DNA of 29,462 bases from IMG/VR virus record IMGVR_UViG_3300014656_004474, positions 1 through 29,462 of that record, one strand, 5' to 3'. Each line of letters begins with the position of its first letter. Positions within the stretch are counted from its first letter, which is position 1. The position numbers and the translations under genes were made by a program. This document shows, one piece after another, positions 2,566-22,355 of the stretch. The notes beneath the pieces are model-generated. The model saw only the letters and a program-made list of their open reading frames with translations. It was not told the DNA's origin and searched no databases. Origin of the DNA: a virus. Lineage: Duplodnaviria; Caudoviricetes.

Positions 2566-2720
2566 GTCAACTACCGTCAGCTAAAGCAGGCGGCTTGTAA
2601 CTGTCGGCTATAAGCCGACTGCCACGTATGGCAGATTGACTGCTGCCCTACAACCAATATTGATTGCAGCGATGTAATCAGCGATTGCGGAGTAACCGCA
2701 CGATATACAAGAAAACAAGG
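2566..2720 (-). ncRNA. predicted TnpB omega/reRNA scaffold; guide continues into 2565-2546
   Basis: Established architecture: scaffold overlaps the tnpB 3' end and right end. 5' boundary is a guess. Confidence 0.55.
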
Positions 2721-3684
2721 ATTGAGACTTACGATTATGCTTATCAATACAACCACATTCAGGGCAAGTTCTCGAAGTATTTCGAGGGTCAACCAGACTC
2801 ACGAAAACACCGGCGATTTTTGCCTTGTATTCGATAAACTTTTTCAACTGATCAAATCCCCAAGAGCTATGTTGTCTCCGCTGCTTCTTTCTTGCAACCG
2901 TTCTGGAACGGATACCCCTCAAATCTTCAAGGGCAATGCCTCTCCCAGTGTCTTTTGCTTTTTTAACAATCTTCTTGGAGATTACATGATTAACGTCTTT
3001 GGCAAAACGAGTTTCTTTTCTCTTGCGCTTCTTCAGAATCCGTTTAGCCGATTTAGTTTGTTTGCTTTGAAGTTTCGCTCTCAATTTGGCATGGCGTTTT
3101 CTAAGGGCGTTGACCGTATCGCCAGAATATTGAACACCATCGGAATCGAAGGCAATATTTTTTATTCCCAAATCCACGCCGATAAACTCGTCAGGATTGT
3201 TGGCAGGTGGTTCAGGAGCGTCAACTACCGTGGCAAGATAAAAGATTTTATCCCGATAGATGAGGTCGGTTTGCCTTACAATTCGGTCAAGCCTTGCTTC
3301 CTGATAAGCTCCAATTCTAATCGGGATAATTTGTCGGCCTTCCAAGGTCAGGAGAGAAACTTTATCCAATCCCTTCCAGGACAGGATTCTTTGATCGTAA
3401 ACAACGGCTCCGCGGGGTTTGAATACTGGCAGAATTTTCTTATCCCGTTTATAAGCTTCACAAGTTTTAGAAATTGCCCTGATTGTAAGCTGAGCAGAAA
3501 GACCAAATTCTTTTCTGATGTCCCGATAAACGCATTGCTGAAGCCTTATTTTATTGGCTGTTTTGAGTTCAAAGGCTTTGTTTGCAATACAATTACAGGC
3601 TTTATTAAAACGCTCCATAGTTTCAAGGAGAATTTTATGTTGCTCATCTGCGGGAGCAAGTTTTATCATCAGTGTTTGCTTCAT
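2608..3684 (-). CDS. tnpB: RNA-guided endonuclease TnpB
   Basis: RuvC-I GVDLG, RuvC-II IALEDL, Zn finger CPECG...CISCG, RuvC-III ADYIAAINI; catalytic D/E/D intact. Confidence 0.95.
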   Translation of the reverse strand: MKQTLMIKLAPADEQHKILLETMERFNKACNCIANKAFELKTANKIRLQQCVYRDIRKEFGLSAQLTIRAISKTCEAYKRDKKILPVFKPRGAVVYDQRILSWKGLDKVSLLTLEGRQIIPIRIGAYQEARLDRIVRQTDLIYRDKIFYLATVVDAPEPPANNPDEFIGVDLGIKNIAFDSDGVQYSGDTVNALRKRHAKLRAKLQSKQTKSAKRILKKRKRKETRFAKDVNHVISKKIVKKAKDTGRGIALEDLRGIRSRTVARKKQRRQHSSWGFDQLKKFIEYKAKIAGVFVSLVDPRNTSRTCPECGCIDKHNRKSQSLFSCISCGYSAIADYIAAINIGCRAAVNLPYVAVGL

Positions 3685-3690
3685 GATCTT

Positions 3691-3719
3691 AATATAAACA
3701 TATTGAAATTAAATGTCAA
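3691..3719 (-). promoter_or_regulatory. sigma70 promoter for tnpB1, leaderless
   Basis: Minus strand TTGACA-N17-TATATT, then 6 nt, then ATG. Confidence 0.75.
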
Positions 3720-3812
3720 TAGTTTTTTAACTTGGAACAGGCTAAAGCATCCCGCCTAAAGGCGGGGGCTTCCGCTTCGCTCCTCCCCAAGGGCGGTGTA
3801 TTAAATTTTCTC

Positions 3813-3841
3813 TTGACAAAGCGAAAGTCAATGTTTATCTT
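3813..3841 (+). promoter_or_regulatory. sigma70 promoter upstream of structured leader
   Basis: TTGACA(3813)-N17-TATCTT(3836); overlaps a TTGAC-N9-GTCAA inverted repeat. Confidence 0.7.
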
Positions 3842-4053
3842 ATACACAATAGCGATCCAGGCCGCTGTATAAAAGATGATCGACAAAAGCGGGACGAGGA
3901 AATGAGAACTAAAATAATCAACACCCTTTTGAAGGGGTGGGCAAGGTCATCTAACCGTCCCTTAGATCGTCTTGCCTGGAAACAAGAACAACTAAGGTTC
4001 TCACATCCATTCACTTCCTAAGTTGATCTTGCCCAAACCTTCAAAAGGGTGTT
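3841..4053 (+). ncRNA. structured leader / C4- or CI-like cloverleaf antisense RNA
   Basis: ~29-bp closing stem 3921-3949/4024-4052 enclosing three arms whose loops complement 3856-3862, 3891-3896 and 3897-3909. Confidence 0.6.
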
Positions 4054-4069
4054 TCTATTTGAGGCATTC

Positions 4070-4510
4070 ATGAAAGTCCTCGTCACAGGCGACAGAAACT
4101 GGTCGAACAGAGCAGTCATTCGACACGCTCTTCTCAATCTTCTTCCTGATGATTCGATCATCGTTCACGGCGCAGCGAGAGGCGCCGATTCAATCGCAGG
4201 AGAGATCGCAAAGAAGTGGGACATCAAAGTTCTCATTTATCCTGCTCAATGGGAAGTATATGGAAAAGCTGCTGGCCCGATCCGCAACAGACAAATGCTC
4301 ACTGAGAATCCTGACATCGAATTAGTTCTCGCATTCCATAACAATATCGAAAAAAGCAAAGGCACAAGAGACATGTGCTCTATAGCTGATAAGCAAGGTA
4401 TTCCGATTCAACTCTACACAGAATCAGGAATGATACCTTGTTTAAAGTTCCATAAGATAGATAGGAGGTTAACAAATGTCCCGTCACGCACTCAAAATTC
4501 TCGCGGATGA
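4070..4510 (+). CDS. DUF2493 / SLOG (YspA-related) protein
   Basis: KVLVTGDR, IIVHGAARGAD, YGKAAGPIRNRQML, VLAFH, SKGTRDM. Confidence 0.85.
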   Translation: MKVLVTGDRNWSNRAVIRHALLNLLPDDSIIVHGAARGADSIAGEIAKKWDIKVLIYPAQWEVYGKAAGPIRNRQMLTENPDIELVLAFHNNIEKSKGTRDMCSIADKQGIPIQLYTESGMIPCLKFHKIDRRLTNVPSRTQNSRG

Positions 4511-5906
4511 CAAAAACATAATCAGTTATCGAAAGAAACTCCGACCCCTTTGTGGTGATCTTATAACTGCAACGATTCTCTTCCAACAAATTTTGTACTG
4601 GTGGTTTCATAACAAAGAGAAGCCTTTCTATAAATACAGACTCCCTCTAAAAAAGCGTGAAGATGAATCACAGGTGCAATATGATGAACGTGCAAAATTT
4701 TATAATGAAGGTGATTCATGGTGTGAGGAACTGGGGTTTTCAAAAGATGAATTTGACACTGCTCTGAAAAGAATTGCACATAAACGAGGGGACGCTGTTA
4801 TAGATGCAGACAAATATCCCATTAAGCTTTTTATCGAATATTACACCACTTTAACCCGCGTCACCTATTACAACATCTGTGATGCTCAGGCATTAAATGA
4901 CATCATTACAAATCATTACTCGAAAAGCGACAATCCCGATTTACGTCCTTACGAGAAACCCGATTTACGAGCAGCGACAATCCCGAAGGAGAATAACAGA
5001 ACAGAGAGTACTTCAGAGAATACTTCAGAAACTTTTTCTAAAGAAAAAGATCACTCCTTTCAGGAGGAAGCAACGAATGAAGAACCTGTTGTAGCAAAGG
5101 ACTTTGTGGGGCCTGAGAACATACATGGCTTGAAAGAAAAGATTGTCGTTGTTCCTGAAGAATCAAAGAGTGTCTATGCTGCTGTCATTGACTATTGGAA
5201 CTCAAAGGGTTTAACTCAACACAGAGAAGGTACAAAACGTCACGATGAGATCATCCGCTTGCTTCATAAGTTTGCTTTGGGAATCTTTCCATACAAAGTT
5301 GAGCAGGAGCGTTTCAAAGGGAAAAAATTCAAGAGGAAGGATTTCATCAAATCGATTGATCAGTTTGCTCTTGCCGCAACAGACCCTGATTATGAGGCGT
5401 CGATTGGCTCTTCCTATAAAGAGAAACTTCGCAAAACACCCCTTCATGAATTCTTGTGGAACACATTTTCAAATGGTGAAATCCACAAATCGTTGTTTCT
5501 GCACTTTTTTGAAAATGATGCTAAACTTGTAACAGATAAGTATTTAAAGGATGAAGATCCGGGATTGACGAAGGCAATCATGGATGAGTATCAGCGACAG
5601 CAACTTGGCACGAAGGATGAGATAAAATCGAAAGGACCATTTGTAAAGGCGACGAAGCGATTGAAGGCATTTCTCGAAGTGAACAAAAAGAGACTTATGC
5701 CGGGGCGCAATCTCTCAGATGAAAACATTGCTCGATGGCTTGTGACCGCTGTTACAAACGCATCAAGAGGAAAAGCTATTTCAGCAGCCTTTCTTGCCTC
5801 TGATCTCACCTATGAACAAATCTTGCCTATATACCTTCAAAATGAAGCAATCTTCACGCGAACAGACGGAGAGCGAACACCAAAATACAAGATGGTGAAT
5901 AATTAA
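4476..5906 (+). CDS. phage replication initiator / replisome organiser-like protein
   Basis: N-terminal winged-HTH-like ATILFQQILYW...FYK...SWCEELGFS; low-complexity linker with DNA repeats and TSENTSET; GGAGG RBS. Confidence 0.6.
   Translation: MSRHALKILADDKNIISYRKKLRPLCGDLITATILFQQILYWWFHNKEKPFYKYRLPLKKREDESQVQYDERAKFYNEGDSWCEELGFSKDEFDTALKRIAHKRGDAVIDADKYPIKLFIEYYTTLTRVTYYNICDAQALNDIITNHYSKSDNPDLRPYEKPDLRAATIPKENNRTESTSENTSETFSKEKDHSFQEEATNEEPVVAKDFVGPENIHGLKEKIVVVPEESKSVYAAVIDYWNSKGLTQHREGTKRHDEIIRLLHKFALGIFPYKVEQERFKGKKFKRKDFIKSIDQFALAATDPDYEASIGSSYKEKLRKTPLHEFLWNTFSNGEIHKSLFLHFFENDAKLVTDKYLKDEDPGLTKAIMDEYQRQQLGTKDEIKSKGPFVKATKRLKAFLEVNKKRLMPGRNLSDENIARWLVTAVTNASRGKAISAAFLASDLTYEQILPIYLQNEAIFTRTDGERTPKYKMVNN
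4926..5030 (+). repeat. iteron-like direct repeats, putative origin
   Basis: AGCGACAATCCCGA at 4926 and 4973; CCCGATTTACG at 4935 and 4959; TACTTCAGA at 5009 and 5021. Confidence 0.6.
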
Positions 5907-5919
5907 AAGGAGAAAAATC

Positions 5920-6207
5920 ATGAAAGCGAAAGTGGTAAAAGTTCCTGTGGGTCCAGCGCCAGAGGAGGTTAGAAGGTGTTGGGTTGGGGTTGTATTGGAG
6001 GTCATCCGGATGCCACAATTCTGTGGCGAGAGAGATTTCCTAACGGGAAAGGACCTCCCAAATAGGAGGGGATTTATGGCTAATACATGTTGTGCTATCT
6101 CGGCTCTTAGGCAGAAATCTCTTGATGCTGCCAAGTGGTTTGAACAGAATCTTCCATCGGATAACCATCATCTATGTTTTGGTCCAGATGAAATGGAAAT
6201 TCTTTAA
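5920..6207 (+). CDS. hypothetical protein
   Basis: AAGGAG RBS, 95-aa ORF in operon. Confidence 0.7.
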   Translation: MKAKVVKVPVGPAPEEVRRCWVGVVLEVIRMPQFCGERDFLTGKDLPNRRGFMANTCCAISALRQKSLDAAKWFEQNLPSDNHHLCFGPDEMEIL

Positions 6208-6499
6208 AAGAAGAACAACGTGAGTGATTTGATCGAAGGATTTAAAATGGAAACTGTAACTAATGATTTGCCTGATAGGTTGTAAGTAGGAGTTACCGTT
6301 TATAGTAAACTGATCGTATGGTGGCATCGAATAGAATTGCAGCATCATACCAGTGTAGGGTATAAAATGGTACGAGTGGTTCATTGAAAAAAGAGTAAAG
6401 AGGAATATGCCCTCTACTTATCCTATCAGGCGTATGCATAAAACTGAGATAAAAGGAGAACAACATGAGTGATTTGATCAAAGAGTTTAAAGGTGAAAC
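6205..6499 (+). repeat. 50-bp direct repeat (6205-6254 / 6450-6499) duplicating RBS and start of the HD gene
   Basis: 42/50 identical by manual alignment. Confidence 0.85.
6270..6431. ncRNA. unassigned structured RNA or MITE-like insert
   Basis: Nested inverted repeats: 6270-6279/6422-6431, 6283-6289/6414-6420, 6294-6304/6361-6372, 6316-6323/6343-6350. Confidence 0.45.
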
Positions 6500-7382: not shown

Positions 7383-8906
7383 ATGTCAGCTTGGACACGG
7401 CGCACTGTGGATTCCTCAGACGAGCAGGTGATTGCCCTTGGCATGGTCGTCTCTGACATCTTCCTATCAAAGATGCAAGGCCTTTTCAACTCTGATTTCT
7501 TCATCAATGACAGTCTGAAAACAATCTGCTTGTGGTGCATGAGCTATTATAAAGAATATCAAAAAGCACCCAAAGACCATATTCAAGACATTTTCAATGA
7601 GAGAAAATTTGGAATTGATAAGGCAGATGCAAAACTGATTGAGGAGTTCTTGGTCATTCTCAACAAACGGTTTGTTGATTTCGAAGGACCGGTCAACGAT
7701 GATTACTTTCTCAATAGATCAAAGAAGTATTTCACCAAACAGAATTTGAAGGTCAGAGCGGAGCGTGTTAGAAATCTTCTTGAACTTGAGAAGATTGATG
7801 AAGCGGAAGCGGAGATGAGTGATTATAAAGAGTTCTCCATCGCAACATCGCCTGCAATTTCACCCTTTGACAAAGAATTGATGAGAAGAATTCTCAACAA
7901 GGAGGATCGCAGTCTGTTTCAATACCCTGGAGCACTGGGGCAGATCATAGGCCCGATTGAGAGAGGCTGTTTGTATGGTGTATTGGGTTTGTTCAAACGC
8001 GGAAAAAGTTATTTCTTAGTAAATACAATGACTTTGGCTGCCTCGTTTCGCAGGAACGCCTTGCTTGTCTCATTAGAAATGGAGAGTATACGAATCGCTG
8101 AAAGAATCATTCGAAACATAGGAACATTCACAAAACCAAAAGATCAGTTCTTTCCGTGCTTCGATTGTGAGAAGAATCAAAAAGGATCATGTAACAAATC
8201 CCAACGTGTAAATGAAGAATCTCTTCTTATCAATGGGAAGAAGCCAAAATTTGATCCATCAATGACCTACAAGCCCTGTACTGTATGTCGTATCATTGAT
8301 CCAAGAGAGTTTGAAGTTGCAACATGGTTCGAGAAGATCGACTATCCTGATTTGTCAATTAAAGGAATGAATAAAGCGACAGGTGCATTTACAAATATGT
8401 TTGGCGACAACATACGGATGCTCACATATCCAAAATATTCAGCGACCATTCGAGACATCGAGCGTGATATTCGTTTGCTTGAAGAAAAAGAAATGTTCAT
8501 TTGTGATATTATCGGAATAGATCAACCGAGCAATCTTAAACCTGAAGACCCCCGCGAGAAAAGAGTTCAGCAAATCGATCAAATTTGGATGCGTTTGTCT
8601 CAGATGGCATCTGAGCGTCAATGCGCTGTATTCGCACCTTCACAAGGAACCCGTGGAGCCATTTATAAAGCGAACACCGATCAAACAGACATTGCAGAAT
8701 GGATAGGGATACTTGGTCATGTCGATGGGATGATTACTCTGAATCAGACGAAGATGGAAAAGATTGAGAAACTTATGAGGGTGGGGATGCTTGTGGGTCG
8801 TCATGATGATTATGCAGAGTCTCAAAACGCTTTACTTCTCACGAACTTCGGGGCCGGTCAATTCTGGGCCGGTTCCATTTTGGTGTCTTGTAACGATGAC
8901 GATTGA
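7383..8906 (+). CDS. DnaB-like (SF4) replicative helicase with Cys-rich insertion
   Basis: Walker A GLFKRGKS, VSLEM, Walker B IIGIDQ, APSQ, GR finger region. Confidence 0.85.
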   Translation: MSAWTRRTVDSSDEQVIALGMVVSDIFLSKMQGLFNSDFFINDSLKTICLWCMSYYKEYQKAPKDHIQDIFNERKFGIDKADAKLIEEFLVILNKRFVDFEGPVNDDYFLNRSKKYFTKQNLKVRAERVRNLLELEKIDEAEAEMSDYKEFSIATSPAISPFDKELMRRILNKEDRSLFQYPGALGQIIGPIERGCLYGVLGLFKRGKSYFLVNTMTLAASFRRNALLVSLEMESIRIAERIIRNIGTFTKPKDQFFPCFDCEKNQKGSCNKSQRVNEESLLINGKKPKFDPSMTYKPCTVCRIIDPREFEVATWFEKIDYPDLSIKGMNKATGAFTNMFGDNIRMLTYPKYSATIRDIERDIRLLEEKEMFICDIIGIDQPSNLKPEDPREKRVQQIDQIWMRLSQMASERQCAVFAPSQGTRGAIYKANTDQTDIAEWIGILGHVDGMITLNQTKMEKIEKLMRVGMLVGRHDDYAESQNALLLTNFGAGQFWAGSILVSCNDDD

Positions 8907-9009: not shown

Positions 9010-9393
9010 ATGTTGTCAATCTGTAAACAATTTGAGTTCCATGCGGCACATCATTTGCCTGATCACGAAGGAAAATGTAAACAAATTCATGGACATACCT
9101 ATCGGTTAGAAATTGAAGTAGGGGGTCCTAAACAATCATCGGGGCCTGAAAGGGGGATGATTGTAGACTTTGGCAAAATCAAAGAAGTCGTTCATCGTTG
9201 TATTATTGACGAGTTGGATCACACCGACTTGAATTTACGATGGGCGAATCCTACAGCAGAGGAGATGGTTGATTCTTTTTCATATCAATTATATGAGGCT
9301 TTTTTTAGGCAGTTTGGCACTGACGTTGTTCTCCTACGAATTTCCTTATGGGAAACGAGTGATTCATGTGCGACATGGAGGGCAGATTTATGA
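9010..9393 (+). CDS. queD: 6-carboxy-5,6,7,8-tetrahydropterin synthase
   Basis: FHAAH, CKQIHGHTY (CxxxHGH), DF, LDH, NPTAE, LWET. Confidence 0.93.
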   Translation: MLSICKQFEFHAAHHLPDHEGKCKQIHGHTYRLEIEVGGPKQSSGPERGMIVDFGKIKEVVHRCIIDELDHTDLNLRWANPTAEEMVDSFSYQLYEAFFRQFGTDVVLLRISLWETSDSCATWRADL

Positions 9394-10757
9394 AGGTTGT
9401 AACAGAAGCAATGAGGAAAAAATGCAGCGATGGTAAAAAAGGAAACAAAAATCCAAGTTATGTTCCTCCTTTGCCTGTGAAATTATCCTCTGATGAGAAT
9501 GAAAAACACTTTTCTTATTTGGTTGGGTATTGGATAGGAGACGGCTTAAAAACCCAAACTAATTTGGGGTTTGCGGTTAGAAATAATAAAATCTATATCG
9601 ATGATTTGGTATTAAAAGCCTCGGTCATTCTTGATTCCAAATTATATTTTCGATATGCCGAGAAAAGTTGTGAATTGTTTTTTCACGCAGAAACCAAGGG
9701 GTTGCAATCACGAATAAAGGAGGAACTTTCTAAGAAGACAATCATAACAAAACATCCTTGGGAATTCATTTGCGGGTTTCTTGATAGTGATGGTTGGGTT
9801 TCTTTTTCTGATAGCAAAAAGACAGGTATAACCATAGCCTTCAGCAATACAAATATGGATTATTTACTGCTGCTGGGCTTTGTTTTGGACAGCGTTTTAA
9901 TACCATATAGAATTAAATTGACAAATGATTATAAGAAAGGCTATAAGCATAGTTGGCATTTGTCAATTGCAACTTCGGCTGCGGTTTATGTGTTAGCAAA
10001 CAAATTGCTGCCAATAACAATTGATGATAAGAAAAAAGAGAAATTTTTGTTGCTTATTGATCATTTCAATACTTTGCATAATAATCAAACCATACCTATC
10101 TGCGAAACCTTCAAAGGAATTCAAGGGGAAGGAAAATCAATAGGGATGGTACAATTTTTTGTAAGAGCTGCTACCTGTGATATGAAATGCAAAATTTGTG
10201 ATTCAATGTATAGCTGGGGAAAAGGTAAAAAAAGAACACTATTAAGTTTATTACAGGAATGCATTGAGAGTAATTGTCATAGTATTTGTTTGACCGGAGG
10301 GGAAATTGCTCAATTTGAAGACAAGTTATCTGCATTTATAGGGATGCTTAGAGCAAATGATTTTCACATTGTTTTGCAGACAAACGGATTGCATTATAGT
10401 AGAAGTTTTGATATGGTTCATACGGTATCAATGGACATAAAAACACCTTGTACAGGAGAAAAAAGTAACGAGGATTTAATCCTCAAATTAAATCCAAAGA
10501 AAGATGAAATAAAAACTCTCATATTTGATGAGGATGATTATGAATATGCCATAAAGGTAAACTCCCTTGCGAAAAAAATAGGACTGCCTCAGGTATTACA
10601 GCCCTGTAATTCTGTAGGAAAGGATTGCCTCACTTCATTGATAGAAAAATACAAATGGATTTGTGCATTGGTACTACGTGATAGACGATGGTCTTCTGAT
10701 ATACGAGCCCTCCCTCAATTGCATGTACTGATTTGGGGAAATGAAAGAGGCAGATAA
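9390..10757 (+). CDS. queE: LAGLIDADG endonuclease fused to 7-carboxy-7-deazaguanine synthase (radical SAM)
   Basis: N-terminal NUMOD3-like motif, YLVGYWIGDG and FICGFLDSDG. From ~10092: ETFKGIQGEG, FVR, CDMKCKICD (CxxxCxxC), LTGGE, TNG, DIK, PQLH. Confidence 0.88.
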   Translation: MKVVTEAMRKKCSDGKKGNKNPSYVPPLPVKLSSDENEKHFSYLVGYWIGDGLKTQTNLGFAVRNNKIYIDDLVLKASVILDSKLYFRYAEKSCELFFHAETKGLQSRIKEELSKKTIITKHPWEFICGFLDSDGWVSFSDSKKTGITIAFSNTNMDYLLLLGFVLDSVLIPYRIKLTNDYKKGYKHSWHLSIATSAAVYVLANKLLPITIDDKKKEKFLLLIDHFNTLHNNQTIPICETFKGIQGEGKSIGMVQFFVRAATCDMKCKICDSMYSWGKGKKRTLLSLLQECIESNCHSICLTGGEIAQFEDKLSAFIGMLRANDFHIVLQTNGLHYSRSFDMVHTVSMDIKTPCTGEKSNEDLILKLNPKKDEIKTLIFDEDDYEYAIKVNSLAKKIGLPQVLQPCNSVGKDCLTSLIEKYKWICALVLRDRRWSSDIRALPQLHVLIWGNERGR

Positions 10758-10772
10758 GGTGATCAATGTTCC

Positions 10773-11324
10773 GTGAGAGACCTACGAGAAATAGTGTATC
10801 ATGATGTTCTGAGGGAATATGGCTATCTTCGTCATTCAAGATATTTTCCAAAAGAACTCGAACACTATAACCCAATAGGTTTGACGAAGAAAGAATGTGT
10901 CGAGTTATTTGCGTATATCGTCGAACATGTTCCGGAGGAACTGCAAAGCCACTTGCCCAAACATGTGCAGCAACTTTACAACTACATTTTTATTGATGAA
11001 ATCAAATCGAGATCGGGGTATATGTCGGAATTCAAATATGTAAGGAAGTGTGACACTTTTGGAAATACGGAAGGCACTCAAGCATTTCTGATCAATGAGA
11101 TGTTAGTGAAGGGCGGATATACTTTGCCTGAAATTGCTCGCGCTGCGGGATGCAACGTGCAAAGAATCAACAGTCACCTAAATGCAATCAGAAGAAAATT
11201 TGCAGATTCGCATATAATTGTTACACAGAAGAGGGGAAGACTCAGCCGTTATTATTTGAAAGAAAGGAAGAAGAATGGAAAAACCGTTCATAAAAAACCT
11301 ACTGTTCAAGCTCTTGTTCAGTAA
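10773..11324 (+). CDS. C-terminal HTH DNA-binding protein
   Basis: YTLPEIARAAGCNVQRINSHLNAIR helix-turn-helix pattern. Confidence 0.6.
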   Translation: MRDLREIVYHDVLREYGYLRHSRYFPKELEHYNPIGLTKKECVELFAYIVEHVPEELQSHLPKHVQQLYNYIFIDEIKSRSGYMSEFKYVRKCDTFGNTEGTQAFLINEMLVKGGYTLPEIARAAGCNVQRINSHLNAIRRKFADSHIIVTQKRGRLSRYYLKERKKNGKTVHKKPTVQALVQ

Positions 11325-11859
11325 AGAGGGATTTGGTTTTAATCCTGATGATCCAAATCTCAAGAATACCCCTGATCGGCTCATGAGAATGTATTGTAAT
11401 GAGTTTTTCCGAAATGTCGATCAAGATCCAAAAGAGATTGCTTCGTTTCCCAATGAAGGATACGATGAAATTATTATGCTTGATAACATCACATTCACAT
11501 CAATTTGTAGCCATCATTTTTTACCGTTCCAAGGTCATGCTTGGTTACTTTACATACCTGATGCGTCTTTAGTCGGAGCATCAAAGCCTGTACGAATCAT
11601 AGATTTCTTTTCACGCAAGCCACAATTGCAAGAGCGTCTTTGTATGGATGTCATAAATCATTTTGTTCAAGGAGTGAAACCTAAAGGTGCAATGCTTGTT
11701 ATGAGAGCAGGTCATGGATGTATGACGTGTCGAGGAGTTAATGTTGAATCAATTTCGGGCATGACGACTTCAGCCATCTATGGAGCATTCAAAGAACAGA
11801 CTGTCAGAAATGAAGGACTCGATCTGATCAAGATTTCCATTATGGATAGGAGGGGATAA
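11275..11859 (+). CDS. folE: GTP cyclohydrolase I
   Basis: TPDR, SICSHHFLPF, GASK, PQLQERL, HGCMTCRG. Confidence 0.93.
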   Translation: MEKPFIKNLLFKLLFSKEGFGFNPDDPNLKNTPDRLMRMYCNEFFRNVDQDPKEIASFPNEGYDEIIMLDNITFTSICSHHFLPFQGHAWLLYIPDASLVGASKPVRIIDFFSRKPQLQERLCMDVINHFVQGVKPKGAMLVMRAGHGCMTCRGVNVESISGMTTSAIYGAFKEQTVRNEGLDLIKISIMDRRG

Positions 11860-11862
11860 TTT

Positions 11863-12150
11863 ATGACCGAGAAGACTAAGGTTCACCCATTTAAACTTAT
11901 CGACAAAAAGAAAATCGACGACGAGACACCAGTAGGCATTACACAGGATGATATTATAAAAAAGACCACTGAACTTTGTGAGATGATTGAAGCATACGAA
12001 GGTTATGAAGCACGAGCAGCAGCCTATGCCTGTTTTGAAATCGTTGTTTATGGAGCAAAGTCAAATTATGAGGCGTTGGGAATTCTCGCTGACGTAATGA
12101 TGGAATATCGTGAGGTAAGCGAAATGATTGCCTATGAGGAAGGAGAGTGA
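11863..12150 (+). CDS. hypothetical protein
   Basis: GGAGG RBS, coupled ORF. Confidence 0.65.
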   Translation: MTEKTKVHPFKLIDKKKIDDETPVGITQDDIIKKTTELCEMIEAYEGYEARAAAYACFEIVVYGAKSNYEALGILADVMMEYREVSEMIAYEEGE

Positions 12151-12419
12151 GTAAGATGACCAAGAAGCAAATTGAAAAATCATACCAGACAGTATTGAAT
12201 GACCGACAAGGAATGCTCCATATCTTTGGCGAGATAAGAGATGCCATCGGTATGGAGTACAAAGAAGGCATTGCTCCAGAAGCTGTTCTTAATGGTGTGC
12301 AAAGGCTGATAAAAATTGGCAATCTTACACCATTTACATTTACTCAATTACAAGAATGGGGTGAATCTATTTGGCAAGAAATGCTGGACAAAGATACAGA
12401 AATAGTGGAGTCACCATGA
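12147..12419 (+). CDS. hypothetical protein
   Basis: GTGA overlap, coupled at both ends. Confidence 0.6.
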   Translation: MSKMTKKQIEKSYQTVLNDRQGMLHIFGEIRDAIGMEYKEGIAPEAVLNGVQRLIKIGNLTPFTFTQLQEWGESIWQEMLDKDTEIVESP

Positions 12420-13462
12420 AACGAATTATTGATGTGCCCATCGAGTCCCTCGAAGAACGTTATTCCGCCAACTGGCAAAGGTGGTTCAAATCAGAATACG
12501 AACGTCTTGGAGTTCCTTATATTCGAATCAATCCTGAACCTCTTTCTGATAAGATCAGAGATGGGAGATTTCTCGACATCTGCGGAACGAATTATTACAA
12601 AGCAATGCAACTCGCTGAAATCTGCAAACTCACCTACGAAGGCAAGATCACGAACAATGATGCATTTCTTATCCATGATTACTGGTATCCCGGTATTGAG
12701 ATGCTGGCTTACCTTCGCGATGCAATGAAAATTGACTTCAAGATTTACGGGTTGCTTCATGCTGGCACCTACGACGATTCAGATTTCATCACTCAAGTAG
12801 GAATGGGTTATTGGGGTGAACATCTGGAGAATGCATGGTTGAGGATTTGCGACAAAATATTTTTGCAGACTCAATGGCACAAAAACCTGATCGTATCGAA
12901 GCGTGATGTTGATCCGAAGAAGCTCGTTATAACAGGGCATCCTACATATTATGAGCAGGATCCATCGAAGTTCAAGAAGGAAAAAATCGTTGTGTTCCCT
13001 CATCGACTCGATCTCGAAAAGCATCCTGAGCTGTTTGATTATCTTGCCAGTATCCTACGATCTGAGTTTCCTGATTGGAAATTTGTCAGGACAAAGGAGG
13101 TCACAAAGACGAAGCAGGAATATTATAATCTTCTTGAACGGGCGACGATTGCGGTCAGTTATGCATCTCAAGAGAATTGGGGGAACGCAATGCAAGAGGC
13201 GGTCTTCGCTCGATGTTATCCTGTTGTTCCTGATCGTATCGCTTACGCTGAGATGTACTACCCTATTTTCAAATTTGGAACGATGGCCGAATCAATTGCA
13301 ATCGTTCGTGATATAATAATAATGAAAGAGCGAAGTTATGGTGATTGGCAGGGCCATCGGATGCAAAAGTATGATTTTCCACTTAACCAAAATAGGTTTG
13401 ATCTTCTCAAAAAAGGTGAGCATGCGATTGAAAATATGGTGAATGAGATCATGAAAGGATGA
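12416..13462 (+). CDS. GT-B glycosyltransferase, GTDC1/QTMAN (DUF3524)-like
   Basis: VVFPHRLDLEKHPE, QENWGNAMQEA (ExxG..xxEA), PVVPDRIAYAEMY. Confidence 0.75.
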   Translation: MKRIIDVPIESLEERYSANWQRWFKSEYERLGVPYIRINPEPLSDKIRDGRFLDICGTNYYKAMQLAEICKLTYEGKITNNDAFLIHDYWYPGIEMLAYLRDAMKIDFKIYGLLHAGTYDDSDFITQVGMGYWGEHLENAWLRICDKIFLQTQWHKNLIVSKRDVDPKKLVITGHPTYYEQDPSKFKKEKIVVFPHRLDLEKHPELFDYLASILRSEFPDWKFVRTKEVTKTKQEYYNLLERATIAVSYASQENWGNAMQEAVFARCYPVVPDRIAYAEMYYPIFKFGTMAESIAIVRDIIIMKERSYGDWQGHRMQKYDFPLNQNRFDLLKKGEHAIENMVNEIMKG

Positions 13463-14391
13463 CGATGAAGATTGCTGTGGACAGTGGTGCTCATTCTTTG
13501 TTCAAAAAATATACGAAAAAAGATAATCAATCTCAATTTGATTTCTCATTTTATGAGACAGATGAATTTTGGGCATATGTTGATAACTACTGTGCTTGGC
13601 TGCACGAGAACAAAGACAAAATCGATCTCTATGTGAATCTCGATGTCATTAGCAACGCTGAACTGACGTGGAAGGTGCAGAAGTACATGGAGAGCAAAAA
13701 CCTCAATCCTCTACCTGTCTATCATACAGGCGAAGATATTTCATGGTTGAAGAAGTACATAGAGAATTATGAATATTTTGCCATTGGTGGTCTTGGTCAG
13801 CAAATGACGAAAAGTAGATGGTTGATGAATTCAGGTGATATTGTTTTTGACTTGATCTGTGACAGTAAAGGAATGCCAAGAAACAAAGTTCATGGGTTCG
13901 CAATGACATCGCCTGATTTGATCGTTGAATTCCCTTTTTTCTCAATAGATTCAACAAGTTGGATGCAATTCGGAAAATACGGCATAATTATTACCCCTAA
14001 AAAGAAAAACAATCATTTCGTCTATGATGAATCTCCACATATCATTTCAGTATCAGCAAGAAAGAAAAGTAAGATGAAAGCGGAGAATTTTGTTCATCTG
14101 TCTCCTGAAGTTCAAAAACAAGTTCATGAATATCTCGAATCAATCGGTCTTAAAATGGGCAAATCAATCCTCGAACATGTTAATTTTGATCAAACAAGAG
14201 GTGAGTTTCCTATCTCAAAAACAGAGGTGTCTGATCAAGAGAAGGTCATTGAAAAAGGGGTGTGCAATAATGCGACGATGAGAGATCAAGCGAATTTGAG
14301 TTATTATTTAGCGCTGGAGGAAAGCATACCCCCATGGCCTCGTCCGTGGAAGAGAAAAAGGAAAGCACTGTTGACGAAATTTCCTATTTGA
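13459..14391 (+). CDS. TGT/DpdA-like guanine transglycosylase
   Basis: DSGAHS, NLDVI, PVYH, AIGGL, HGFAMT, SIDSTSW; located in the deazaguanine cluster. Confidence 0.75.
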   Translation: MTMKIAVDSGAHSLFKKYTKKDNQSQFDFSFYETDEFWAYVDNYCAWLHENKDKIDLYVNLDVISNAELTWKVQKYMESKNLNPLPVYHTGEDISWLKKYIENYEYFAIGGLGQQMTKSRWLMNSGDIVFDLICDSKGMPRNKVHGFAMTSPDLIVEFPFFSIDSTSWMQFGKYGIIITPKKKNNHFVYDESPHIISVSARKKSKMKAENFVHLSPEVQKQVHEYLESIGLKMGKSILEHVNFDQTRGEFPISKTEVSDQEKVIEKGVCNNATMRDQANLSYYLALEESIPPWPRPWKRKRKALLTKFPI

Positions 14392-21144: not shown

Positions 21145-22251
21145 CTAAAGACAGACAGCTTTAAGGGGAATATGAGAACACAAGTCCAGCATACTCACAT
21201 CTTTTCGGCCTGGTTTACAAAGCAGGCCCAACTGTGCAATATTCTTTGCCGCATTTGTATCGGCGTCAGCAACATTACCACAATTTGGACAACTAAAGTG
21301 CTTGCCATTTCTATTACCAAGATGCCTACACACATTACAAATCTTGCTCGTATAGCGAGGATTAACCACTTTAAGAGGAACGCCAGCAAGTTTAGCCTTG
21401 TATTCAAGAAAAGAACGAAGTTGAAAGAAAGCCCAAGAGTGGTGTTTTCTTCTTTGGGCTTTTCTTACAGTGGTCCTTTCCCTGATATGGGTCAAATCTT
21501 CGATAGCAATTCCCTTATTGAGAATCCTTGCTTTTTCAACGATTGTTTTGCTGATAGTGTGATTGGTAATAGTAGCGTGTCGTTGTTCTCTGCCTTTAAG
21601 CCGTTTCAGAAGTTTTTCGCTTCCGGGCGTGCCTTTGCTTTGAACACTGTGACGCACTTTAAAATATTTATCTCGAACCTTATTGAGACTTTCAGAACCA
21701 AAATTTGTACCATCGGACAATGTAGCAACATCAGTAATTCCAAAGTCCACACCTATGAACTCTTCAACATCTTTCATCGCTTCTTCAGGAATTTCAACAG
21801 TCTGGAAAAGAAAAAACTTGCCTTTCTTAGTTACAAGGTCTGCTTCTCCTTTAATGTACGGCAAGTATTTGGGATTATGGCAAACAAAGGGTATTTTCAA
21901 CCTACCATCAATAGACCAGATAGAAACGGCGTTGTCTTTTTTGTAAGAAAGAATGCGGGCATCATAAGTAATAGCTCCGAGAGGCTTAAAGGACCGCTTC
22001 GTTTTTTTATCTTTTTTGTAAGCATTGGCAACTTTACTGATACACCTTACAAGAGCTTGGGCAGAAAGCTTAGAAGAGTCCTTAATTTGACGGTAGGTAA
22101 GATGGTGGAGTTTAAATTGGTTAAAAACCTTATTAACCCAAGCAACTTCGGAAATCTCATTACAGGTGCGATTACATTCTTTAATGGTCTCAACAAGAGA
22201 ACGTGCTTGTTCGTCAGAAGGCAGAAGTTTTATTTGCAATGTTAATTTCAT
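21145..22251 (-). CDS. tnpB: RNA-guided endonuclease TnpB
   Basis: GVDFG, IAIEDL, CNVC...CPNCG, ADTNAAKNI; catalytic triad intact. Confidence 0.95.
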   Translation of the reverse strand: MKLTLQIKLLPSDEQARSLVETIKECNRTCNEISEVAWVNKVFNQFKLHHLTYRQIKDSSKLSAQALVRCISKVANAYKKDKKTKRSFKPLGAITYDARILSYKKDNAVSIWSIDGRLKIPFVCHNPKYLPYIKGEADLVTKKGKFFLFQTVEIPEEAMKDVEEFIGVDFGITDVATLSDGTNFGSESLNKVRDKYFKVRHSVQSKGTPGSEKLLKRLKGREQRHATITNHTISKTIVEKARILNKGIAIEDLTHIRERTTVRKAQRRKHHSWAFFQLRSFLEYKAKLAGVPLKVVNPRYTSKICNVCRHLGNRNGKHFSCPNCGNVADADTNAAKNIAQLGLLCKPGRKDVSMLDLCSHIPLKAVCL

Positions 22252-22257
22252 AGTGCT

Positions 22258-22285
22258 ATTATAGTCATATATTTGAAAATGTCAA
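22258..22285 (-). promoter_or_regulatory. sigma70 promoter for tnpB2, leaderless
   Basis: Minus strand TTGACA-N16-TATAAT, then 6 nt, then ATG. Confidence 0.75.
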
Positions 22286-22355
22286 GAACTATTTTAAAGA
22301 AGGAAGAGGCAATTCCTCTGCCAGCTAAAGCAAGCGGTCTCCTTGCCCCAAACTT

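Follow-up and report, generated by a model that had tools for sequence, protein, structure and literature searches.

A family of leader RNA elements with loops antisense to their own upstream sequence, found ahead of replication genes in tailed phages

To our knowledge, control of phage genes by an RNA from the same strand is known mainly from two systems, namely the C4 RNA of phage P1 and the CI RNA of phage P4. The C4 antisense RNA is processed by RNase P to a species of about 77 nt. The antisense loops of C4 RNAs are variable in sequence (PMC5320573, PMC8546580, PMC4919922, PMC2864571), and P4 CI RNA arises from the leader of the replication genes and pairs with the same transcript, leading to premature termination (PMC4825925). 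In this article, we describe an uncatalogued RNA design, unrelated to C4 and CI, that recurs across phages whose primases share a median identity of 37%.

The starting point is a 29.5-kb virus record (29,462 nt in total, referred to as the window) that contains genes for a primase, an O-like initiator, a DnaB helicase, the queuosine pathway, polymerase A and recombination, nearly all of them on the + strand, and for which groundwater metagenomes are the best-matching public sequencing runs. A preliminary description of this sequence had proposed a cloverleaf RNA whose three loops are antisense to its own leader, placed ahead of the replication operon. Every motif it quoted is found at its position, and the placement is confirmed: the element sits between a sigma70-type promoter (3813-3841) and a SLOG gene starting at 4070, with the initiator and helicase genes further downstream on the same strand. 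Positions 3849-4060 are a promoter-led leader that consists of a 5' hairpin, purine-rich sites, and a 28-bp stem followed by a U-tract. The features are as follows, in window coordinates.

3813..3841, + strand: predicted sigma70-type promoter (-35 box 3813-3818, 17-nt spacer, -10 box 3836-3841)
3849..3868, + strand: 5' hairpin A, whose loop carries site a (3856-3862), complementary to the loop of arm 2
3873..3881, + strand: site j, a 9-bp complement (one G-U pair) of 3965-3973, identical in the sister allele L022
3891..3896, + strand: site t1, complement of loop 1; its counterpart in the related locus L114 has other letters
3897..3910, + strand: site t3, complement of loop 3, overlapping the ribosome-binding site and start codon of the leader ORF
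3902..4021, + strand: leader ORF of 39 codons that runs through the stem; the frame is also open in L022
3920..3949, + strand: S5, the 5' strand of the long closing stem
Within the stem, + strand: alternative hairpin (predicted antiterminator) formed by the 3' part of S5 with 3965-3976
3955..3961, + strand: loop 1, antisense to t1
3970..3987, + strand: arm 2 hairpin, with loop a' (3974-3980) as the predicted kissing partner of site a
3996..4019, + strand: loop 3 (b'), pyrimidine-rich, antisense to t3 and directly 5' of the 3' stem strand
4024..4053, + strand: S3, the 3' strand of the long closing stem
4052..4060, + strand: U-tract after the stem (7 T of 9; 8 of 9 in L022)
4070..4510, + strand: SLOG-family (YAcAr) gene, the first gene after the element
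4476..5906, + strand: probable replication initiator, O-like (phrog_9773, E 1e-6), overlapping the SLOG gene
7383..8906, + strand: DnaB-like replicative helicase

The promoter is identified by its consensus match alone (10 of 12 positions), has identical boxes in L022, and places the predicted transcription start near 3848. The stem and the U-tract are predicted from their sequence to form an intrinsic terminator with a very large loop; the terminator scan that we used accepts only loops of 3-8 nt, and the combination is absent from its list. The initiator gene is syntenic with winged-HTH genes of the relatives.

Several neighboring features of the window deserve mention in their own right. 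A TnpB-only IS605-type element (2567-3826, with tnpB at 2608-3684 on the - strand) is inserted in the leader promoter, and because the -35 region occurs on both of its flanks (2551-2570 and 3812-3831), the promoter appears to have been rebuilt after the insertion. The left-side copy lies behind the same TTGAC motif and is matched, apart from two early mismatches, by the predicted guide, the sequence beside the right end; in the empty allele L022 (1797-1770, - strand) this motif has one base changed, as expected for escape from cleavage. A second TnpB element lies at 21145-22350 on the - strand, whose ends have short motifs in common with those of the first. The region 9010-14391 holds QueD, QueE, FolE and a TGT/DpdA-like gene, which make up a 7-deazaguanine DNA-modification cluster; the QueE-like radical SAM gene (9366-10757) has an N-terminal LAGLIDADG-like domain, possibly the remnant of an intein or intron, and queD-like genes recur next to the helicase in many related loci. 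Finally, a 50-nt direct repeat (6205-6254 and 6450-6499, 84% identical) covers the ribosome-binding site and gene start ahead of an HD-domain gene, with a 20-bp stem between the two copies.

The closing stem was originally given as 15 perfect base pairs extending to about 29; the perfect part in fact comprises 16 pairs (3920-3935 with 4038-4053), followed by a 2x2 internal loop and a further 12 pairs. Among the inverted repeats listed for the window it is the longest (33-nt arms, 88%), and the fold is markedly more stable than that of shuffled sequences, with z scores of -5.25 for 3841-4053 and -7.42 for 3920-4053. The cloverleaf is not the preferred RNA structure: it lies 3.1 kcal/mol above the best fold, which is a rod, and in RNA arm 2 is paired with a probability of 0.88, arm 1 with 0.06 and arm 3 with 0.01. 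It is the best fold only under DNA parameters, where this applies to both strands. The three-armed cloverleaf is not the conserved feature. What the closed core does offer is three recognition segments that are mostly unpaired (0.60-0.81). The match of site j, the U-tract and the alternative hairpin inside the stem were all missed at the preliminary stage.

The complementarity between loops and leader stands, with matches of 6, 7 and 7 Watson-Crick pairs for loops 1, 2 and 3, respectively. Its significance was assessed with 20,000 dinucleotide shuffles of the leader in a test that is post hoc, the loops having been taken from the earlier finding. Single matches occur in 4.3%, 0.09% and 11.2% of the shuffles for loops 1, 2 and 3, so that only the loop-2 match is rare when taken singly, while all three matches occur jointly in none of the 20,000. 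Two separate pairings had been proposed for loop 3. The first is present as described; the second contains a mismatch and overlaps the first at 3903-3905, and we therefore treat both as one site. A fourth match, of 9 bp between 3873-3881 and 3965-3973, is co-linear with two of the others.

For a comparison among related phages, a helicase alignment was used to choose the best 80 of 184 related viral loci, of which 58 hold the whole interval from primase to helicase. Elements were selected by rules blind to complementarity, namely a stem of at least 26 bp with 40-105 nt inside it, a T-rich tail, and a position before the helicase. Within these best 80 of 184 loci, the layout was found between primase and helicase in 19 of the 58. 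Altogether, 21 of 82 sources passed the selection (the 19 loci, the window and L022), and after dropping L134 and L175, whose elements are identical to another, 19 non-redundant elements remained.

Tested against 200 shuffles, the 80-nt leader pairs with its own inner region more strongly than 95% of them in 16 of these 19. The failures are L114, L127 and L155, and L114 misses because its site a falls outside the 80 nt. As a control, 29 other long stems from the same loci were subjected to the same test; two pass, one of which (L173) itself lies upstream of a helicase. The mean pairing score is -24.7 kcal/mol for cognate and -13.1 kcal/mol for non-cognate combinations, with the own leader being the best partner in just 11 of the 19 elements, and a loop-loop pair of -6 kcal/mol or better exists in 10 of the 19 cognate combinations, against 20 of the 342 non-cognate ones. 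Loops and leader sites change together among the relatives, as the preliminary description had anticipated. In L114, the nearest relative of the window by primase, the loop TTTCGGGC faces GCCCGAAA, the counterpart in the window being ATCCAGGC facing GCCTGGAA, and two further sites are kept in the window's order with other letters. The close relatives L133, L139 and L140 have similar stems and a site b that is altered together with its partner. Three recognition sites, as originally claimed, are present in the window, L022 and L114; in most other members there are two.

Since MAFFT failed to register all 18 divergent members, pair counts were taken from seven hand-picked members of one layout, the window excluded, with a structure drawn from one member, which favors that structure. 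In this alignment 77% of cells pair (64% when shuffled); changes on both sides affect 34 of the 60 pairs, among them 4 of the 6 kissing pairs. A covariance model built from the seven members yields 20 matches at E up to 1 in the 82 sources. The window scores weakly against it (26.5 bits, E 0.11), so that its membership in the family rests on layout, position and the comparison with L114. A relaxed scan, in which up to three stems were tested per locus, gave shorter-stemmed candidates in five more loci. On a quick primase tree with weakly supported deep branches, the element label needs 7 changes. In 11 of the 19, the first gene after the U-tract encodes 411-518 aa, which is the size of an initiator, and lies just before the helicase, with HTH_36 hits in 5 of these 11; in the remaining 8 an extra gene comes first or the gene call is ambiguous. 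We conclude that these sequences are a real, conserved and uncatalogued RNA element family, which likely gates the phage replication genes.

Closely similar copies are few. A metagenome pattern search returned 102 loci, among which L022 is the sole homologue besides the window's own record, the other 100 being chance hits. The core of L022 is unchanged except for two A-to-G changes, both of which yield G-U pairs in the cloverleaf arms, and its leader, longer by 10 nt, has a different sequence across 3884-3914. The rewritten leader still pairs, at -11.8 kcal/mol with loop 1 and -16.2 kcal/mol with loop 3 (-14.3 kcal/mol for loop 3 in the window). The change A3894G in site t1 retains pairing as G-U, and T3850C in hairpin A turns a U-G into a C-G pair. 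Because the L022 leader complements both ends of loop 3, the two overlapping loop-3 matches of the window may be the remnant of one longer site. A contig from sequencing run X6 carries the L022 allele. Another from run X2 (record 2), in the pieces of it that are visible, keeps 3836-3880 and arm 2 and differs in arm 3; this homologue was missed by the metagenome pattern because the gap range of the pattern was about 2 nt too short. Exact DNA patterns of the element gave no match in viral contigs or genome contigs, a further exact-pattern search gave 11 hits that were all due to chance, and searches for loci by initiator or by a single helicase returned no locus. Among cultured phages, neither the element nor the initiator has a match, and only distant helicases were found. 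The listed sequencing runs that contain the sequence include none of RNA, a result without bearing on expression.

The sister allele also differs downstream of the element, where an extra low-GC gene of about 270 codons (L022 722-1522, - strand) stands between the U-tract and the SLOG gene. It weakly resembles RlmN/Cfr radical-SAM RNA methyltransferases, far below family cut-offs, and is flanked by a short repeat containing a ribosome-binding site; contigs of both alleles occur in run X6. The same position is occupied by rtcB in L125 and by a T5orf172 gene in L133, and the site between the U-tract and the downstream genes looks like an insertion hot spot.

The behavior of the growing transcript was modeled by equilibrium folding without pseudoknots. 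In truncated transcripts of eight members, pairing between the leader and the inner region persists until about half or more of the 3' stem strand has been made. For the window, hiding 10 nt gives a stem probability of 0.03 in the presence of its own leader, 0.86 with no leader and 0.65 with foreign leaders; averaged over the family, and with 14 nt of the 3' strand concealed, the corresponding values are 0.26, 0.73 and 0.60. The effect of the leader on stem probability exceeds 0.3 in 11 of 19 members with 14 nt hidden and in 9 of 19 with 10 nt, and in no member does the own leader raise stem formation by more than 0.01. Because it lowers the probability of the nascent stem, the leader is predicted to be an antiterminator. 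In 9 of the 19 members, pairing of the inner region with the 5' stem strand likewise exceeds the null, as the inner region repeats the start of the 3' strand; the window's alternative hairpin is present in the fold, yet does not beat the null (142/200). Between the last leader site and the stem, 12 of the 19 have a linker of at most 15 nt, compared to stems of 26-35 bp. In A-form geometry one base pair takes up about 2.8 A, and the shortest linkers are therefore too short to span the stem. Leader pairing would ring the 5' strand, and a 3' strand still bound to the polymerase could presumably not wind through.

Attenuation by RNA-RNA pairing, as originally proposed, remains the best reading of the element, predicted from folding and from matched letter changes. 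We favor, at a probability of roughly 0.5 and on the strength of the modeling, an attenuator whose terminated product would bind new leaders in trans and force their termination. During synthesis, the 3' stem strand would emerge only after the leader had paired with the inner segments; the alternative hairpin would aid this pairing, the terminator stem would be held open, and the polymerase would proceed into the replication genes. Once the long stem is closed, the short linker and the topology would block the leader from its own inner segments, so that the finished RNA would offer its loops only to other molecules, and it is for this reason that we prefer termination in trans to a switch confined to one molecule. 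A nuclease would probably trim the leader off the terminated RNA, an assumed step; if untrimmed, this RNA would carry free targets and could titrate itself. The terminated RNA would present its loops to other transcripts, kissing hairpin A and zipping onto j, t1 and t3, and a nascent leader bound in this way would release the stem of its transcript for closure at the U-tract. As each termination would add one repressor, the replication genes would be on early and shut off later, and the changing letters would confer specificity on each phage lineage.

The preliminary description had also suggested a role in immunity. Tyrosine integrase, ParA, resolvase and S24 repressor were found in none of 41 related records, 10 of which are at least 90% complete, which leaves prophage immunity unsupported, and a PHROGs scan of 146 of the 215 ORFs of two near-complete carriers found terminase, head and tape-measure genes and no lysogeny module. 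With the four lysogeny and plasmid marker families absent from these records, nothing points to a need for copy control or immunity, other carrier states being possible, and replication timing or the exclusion of kin fits better. A more ambitious form of the proposal, which we put forward tentatively, is that the element might be a protein-free autoregulator with one promoter and one strand, in which the terminated leader is the repressor carried inside its own terminator loop, providing an RNA-only shut-off of replication and a code for superinfection exclusion. Under the autoregulator interpretation, many orthogonal specificity groups might exist among 80-100-kb tailed phages without integrases and classical repressors.

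The same folds could also serve an attenuator that works only in cis, with a ribosome occupying the leader ORF, a leader-binding protein (for example, the initiator) or the speed of the polymerase deciding between them. We regard such a cis-acting switch as possible, at odds clearly lower than those of action in trans. All observed pairings can form inside one nascent molecule, and in the window and L022 site t3 spans a ribosome-binding site and start codon whose frame is kept despite the 10-nt difference. Four members (L166 8300-8470, L174 8420-8620, L184 8315-8510 and L162 8100-8340) place a start codon 2 nt ahead of the stem, and their ORFs of 4-5 codons end at similar points inside the 5' stem strand; the order of inner sites differs in some of them, and the four may be a ribosome-coupled subtype. 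Across the family, however, a leader ORF with a ribosome-binding site that is open through the stem is found in 3 of 19 members (null 1.8), and the enrichment for an ATG close to the stem is slight (12 of 19 compared to 8.2, p 0.047; p 0.08 and 0.12 for other windows). The letters of the leader vary among members, unlike those expected of a site needed by a ligand or protein, and both kissing partners are displayed in hairpin loops, an arrangement that is typical of intermolecular recognition, as in plasmid antisense RNAs. The sign of the switch could also be reversed, in which case the leader would aid the terminator by opening the alternative hairpin and the finished RNA would activate the replication genes in trans. 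S5 could indeed be freed by sites a and j, whose partner is the 3' strand of the alternative hairpin, and a precedent is IsrK, which activates its own read-through transcript (PMC4825925). The cognate leader nevertheless lowers stem formation in most members of the nascent-RNA model, and site b pairs beside the 3' stem strand, enclosing S5 in a loop, and we consider the reversed sign quite improbable.

Two further explanations give the inner matches a different purpose. The element could be a stand-alone structural RNA, forming dimers or rings through leader-loop pairing, or a single-stranded origin DNA, in either case with no gating of transcription; the closed form displays both halves of every pairing, the cloverleaf is the best fold on both strands with DNA parameters, and the initiator gene adjoins the element. 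We judge this improbable, given that the differences between paired sites of the window and L022 produce G-U pairs on the + strand and A-C mismatches on the other, that a promoter precedes the element and a U-tract follows it, with a ribosome-binding site close downstream in most members, and that the cognate leader specifically suppresses the stem. Alternatively, a separate RNA from the opposite strand could be the regulator, as in pT181, and the inner matches would serve solely as the antiterminator. The logic and the class of target gene are those of pT181 and pIP501 (PMC5703833), and promoter-like matches on the opposite strand occur in 3 of the 19 members; no consensus promoter was found on the opposite strand over the window's element, by an insensitive scan that detected the sense promoter in just 4 of 19. 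This last explanation appears very unlikely to us. Termination by the element's own product acting in trans remains the preferred reading.

Catalogued RNA families and other kinds of element were considered as well. When the window was searched with the Rfam covariance models, nothing reached gathering score, and the region 3700-4200 at E up to 10 gave just 4 weak, unrelated matches; among the relatives, 9 loci searched at gathering score and two members searched at relaxed E likewise gave none for the element. In a related phage, a Twister-P5 ribozyme scores above gathering at L180 1316-1370. Known ribozymes and riboswitches were rejected because the element has no Rfam match, and a tRNA gene because ARAGORN finds no tRNA-like gene. 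The flanks lack the target-site repeat of a miniature transposon, and the upstream hairpin travels with the element. A conserved leader peptide was rejected because the ORF is kept in the window and L022 and not family-wide, and control via hiding of the downstream ribosome-binding site because that site lies outside the stem.

If the terminated RNA acts in trans, the element would reveal a way in which phages that lack repressors or integrases can time or cap their replication and keep out kin, and its variants would be natural orthogonal RNA-triggered terminators for synthetic circuits. We found no description of this design in the open literature, where motif lists in supplements could hold one.

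Like P4 CI, the element lies in the leader of replication genes, and its target is upstream of the RNA (PMC4825925). Unlike the arrangement with P4 seqC, the window has no downstream target within 440 nt (PMC4825925): helices of -12 kcal/mol or better are formed by 17 of 19 leaders compared to 3 of 76 downstream 110-nt windows, and by none downstream in the window. In addition, a 28-bp stem of its own and a U-tract form the end of the element, and the carriers are tailed phages of about 83-99 kb in which no integrase was detected, which is different from P4. With neither an Rfam match nor a downstream target and with a terminal stem of its own, the element does not belong to the C4/CI class to which it had been likened.

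The similarity to C4 (RF01695; PMC5320573, PMC8546580) consists of exposed loops antisense to the own transcript, of variable loops that set specificity, and, in the window, of one site covering a ribosome-binding site. The differences from C4 are that the core has 134 nt and is closed by a long stem (77 nt in C4), that it precedes initiator and helicase genes whereas C4 controls an antirepressor gene, and that the leader ORF is not conserved in the element family. The Gifsy-1 IsrK RNA (PMC4825925) resembles the proposed product in being a short terminated RNA that acts in trans on read-through transcripts of the same promoter; IsrK activates translation via a downstream target, whereas the targets of the element are upstream and the predicted outcome is termination. 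The zipper-type attenuator cATT of pLS20 (PMC13401043) likewise has a long stem-loop, an upstream hairpin and read-through as the default. In cATT, termination takes place at a separate hairpin, and the antiterminator arises when the 5' strand of that hairpin prolongs the long stem, whereas in the element the long stem is itself the predicted terminator, with the leader pairing inside its loop; the U-tract directly follows the long stem in the window and in the selected members.

The plasmids pT181 and pIP501 (PMC5703833, PMC5415839) have an intrinsic terminator just before the initiator gene that is kept open by upstream sequence until an RNA blocks that sequence; the element has the stem, the U-tract and the position, and a switch of this logic is predicted for it. 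Their RNA comes from the opposite strand and has its own promoter (PMC5703833), whereas the antisense segments of the element are on the same strand, inside the terminator loop. In about 210 nt, the layout of the element unites the logics of P4 and pT181.
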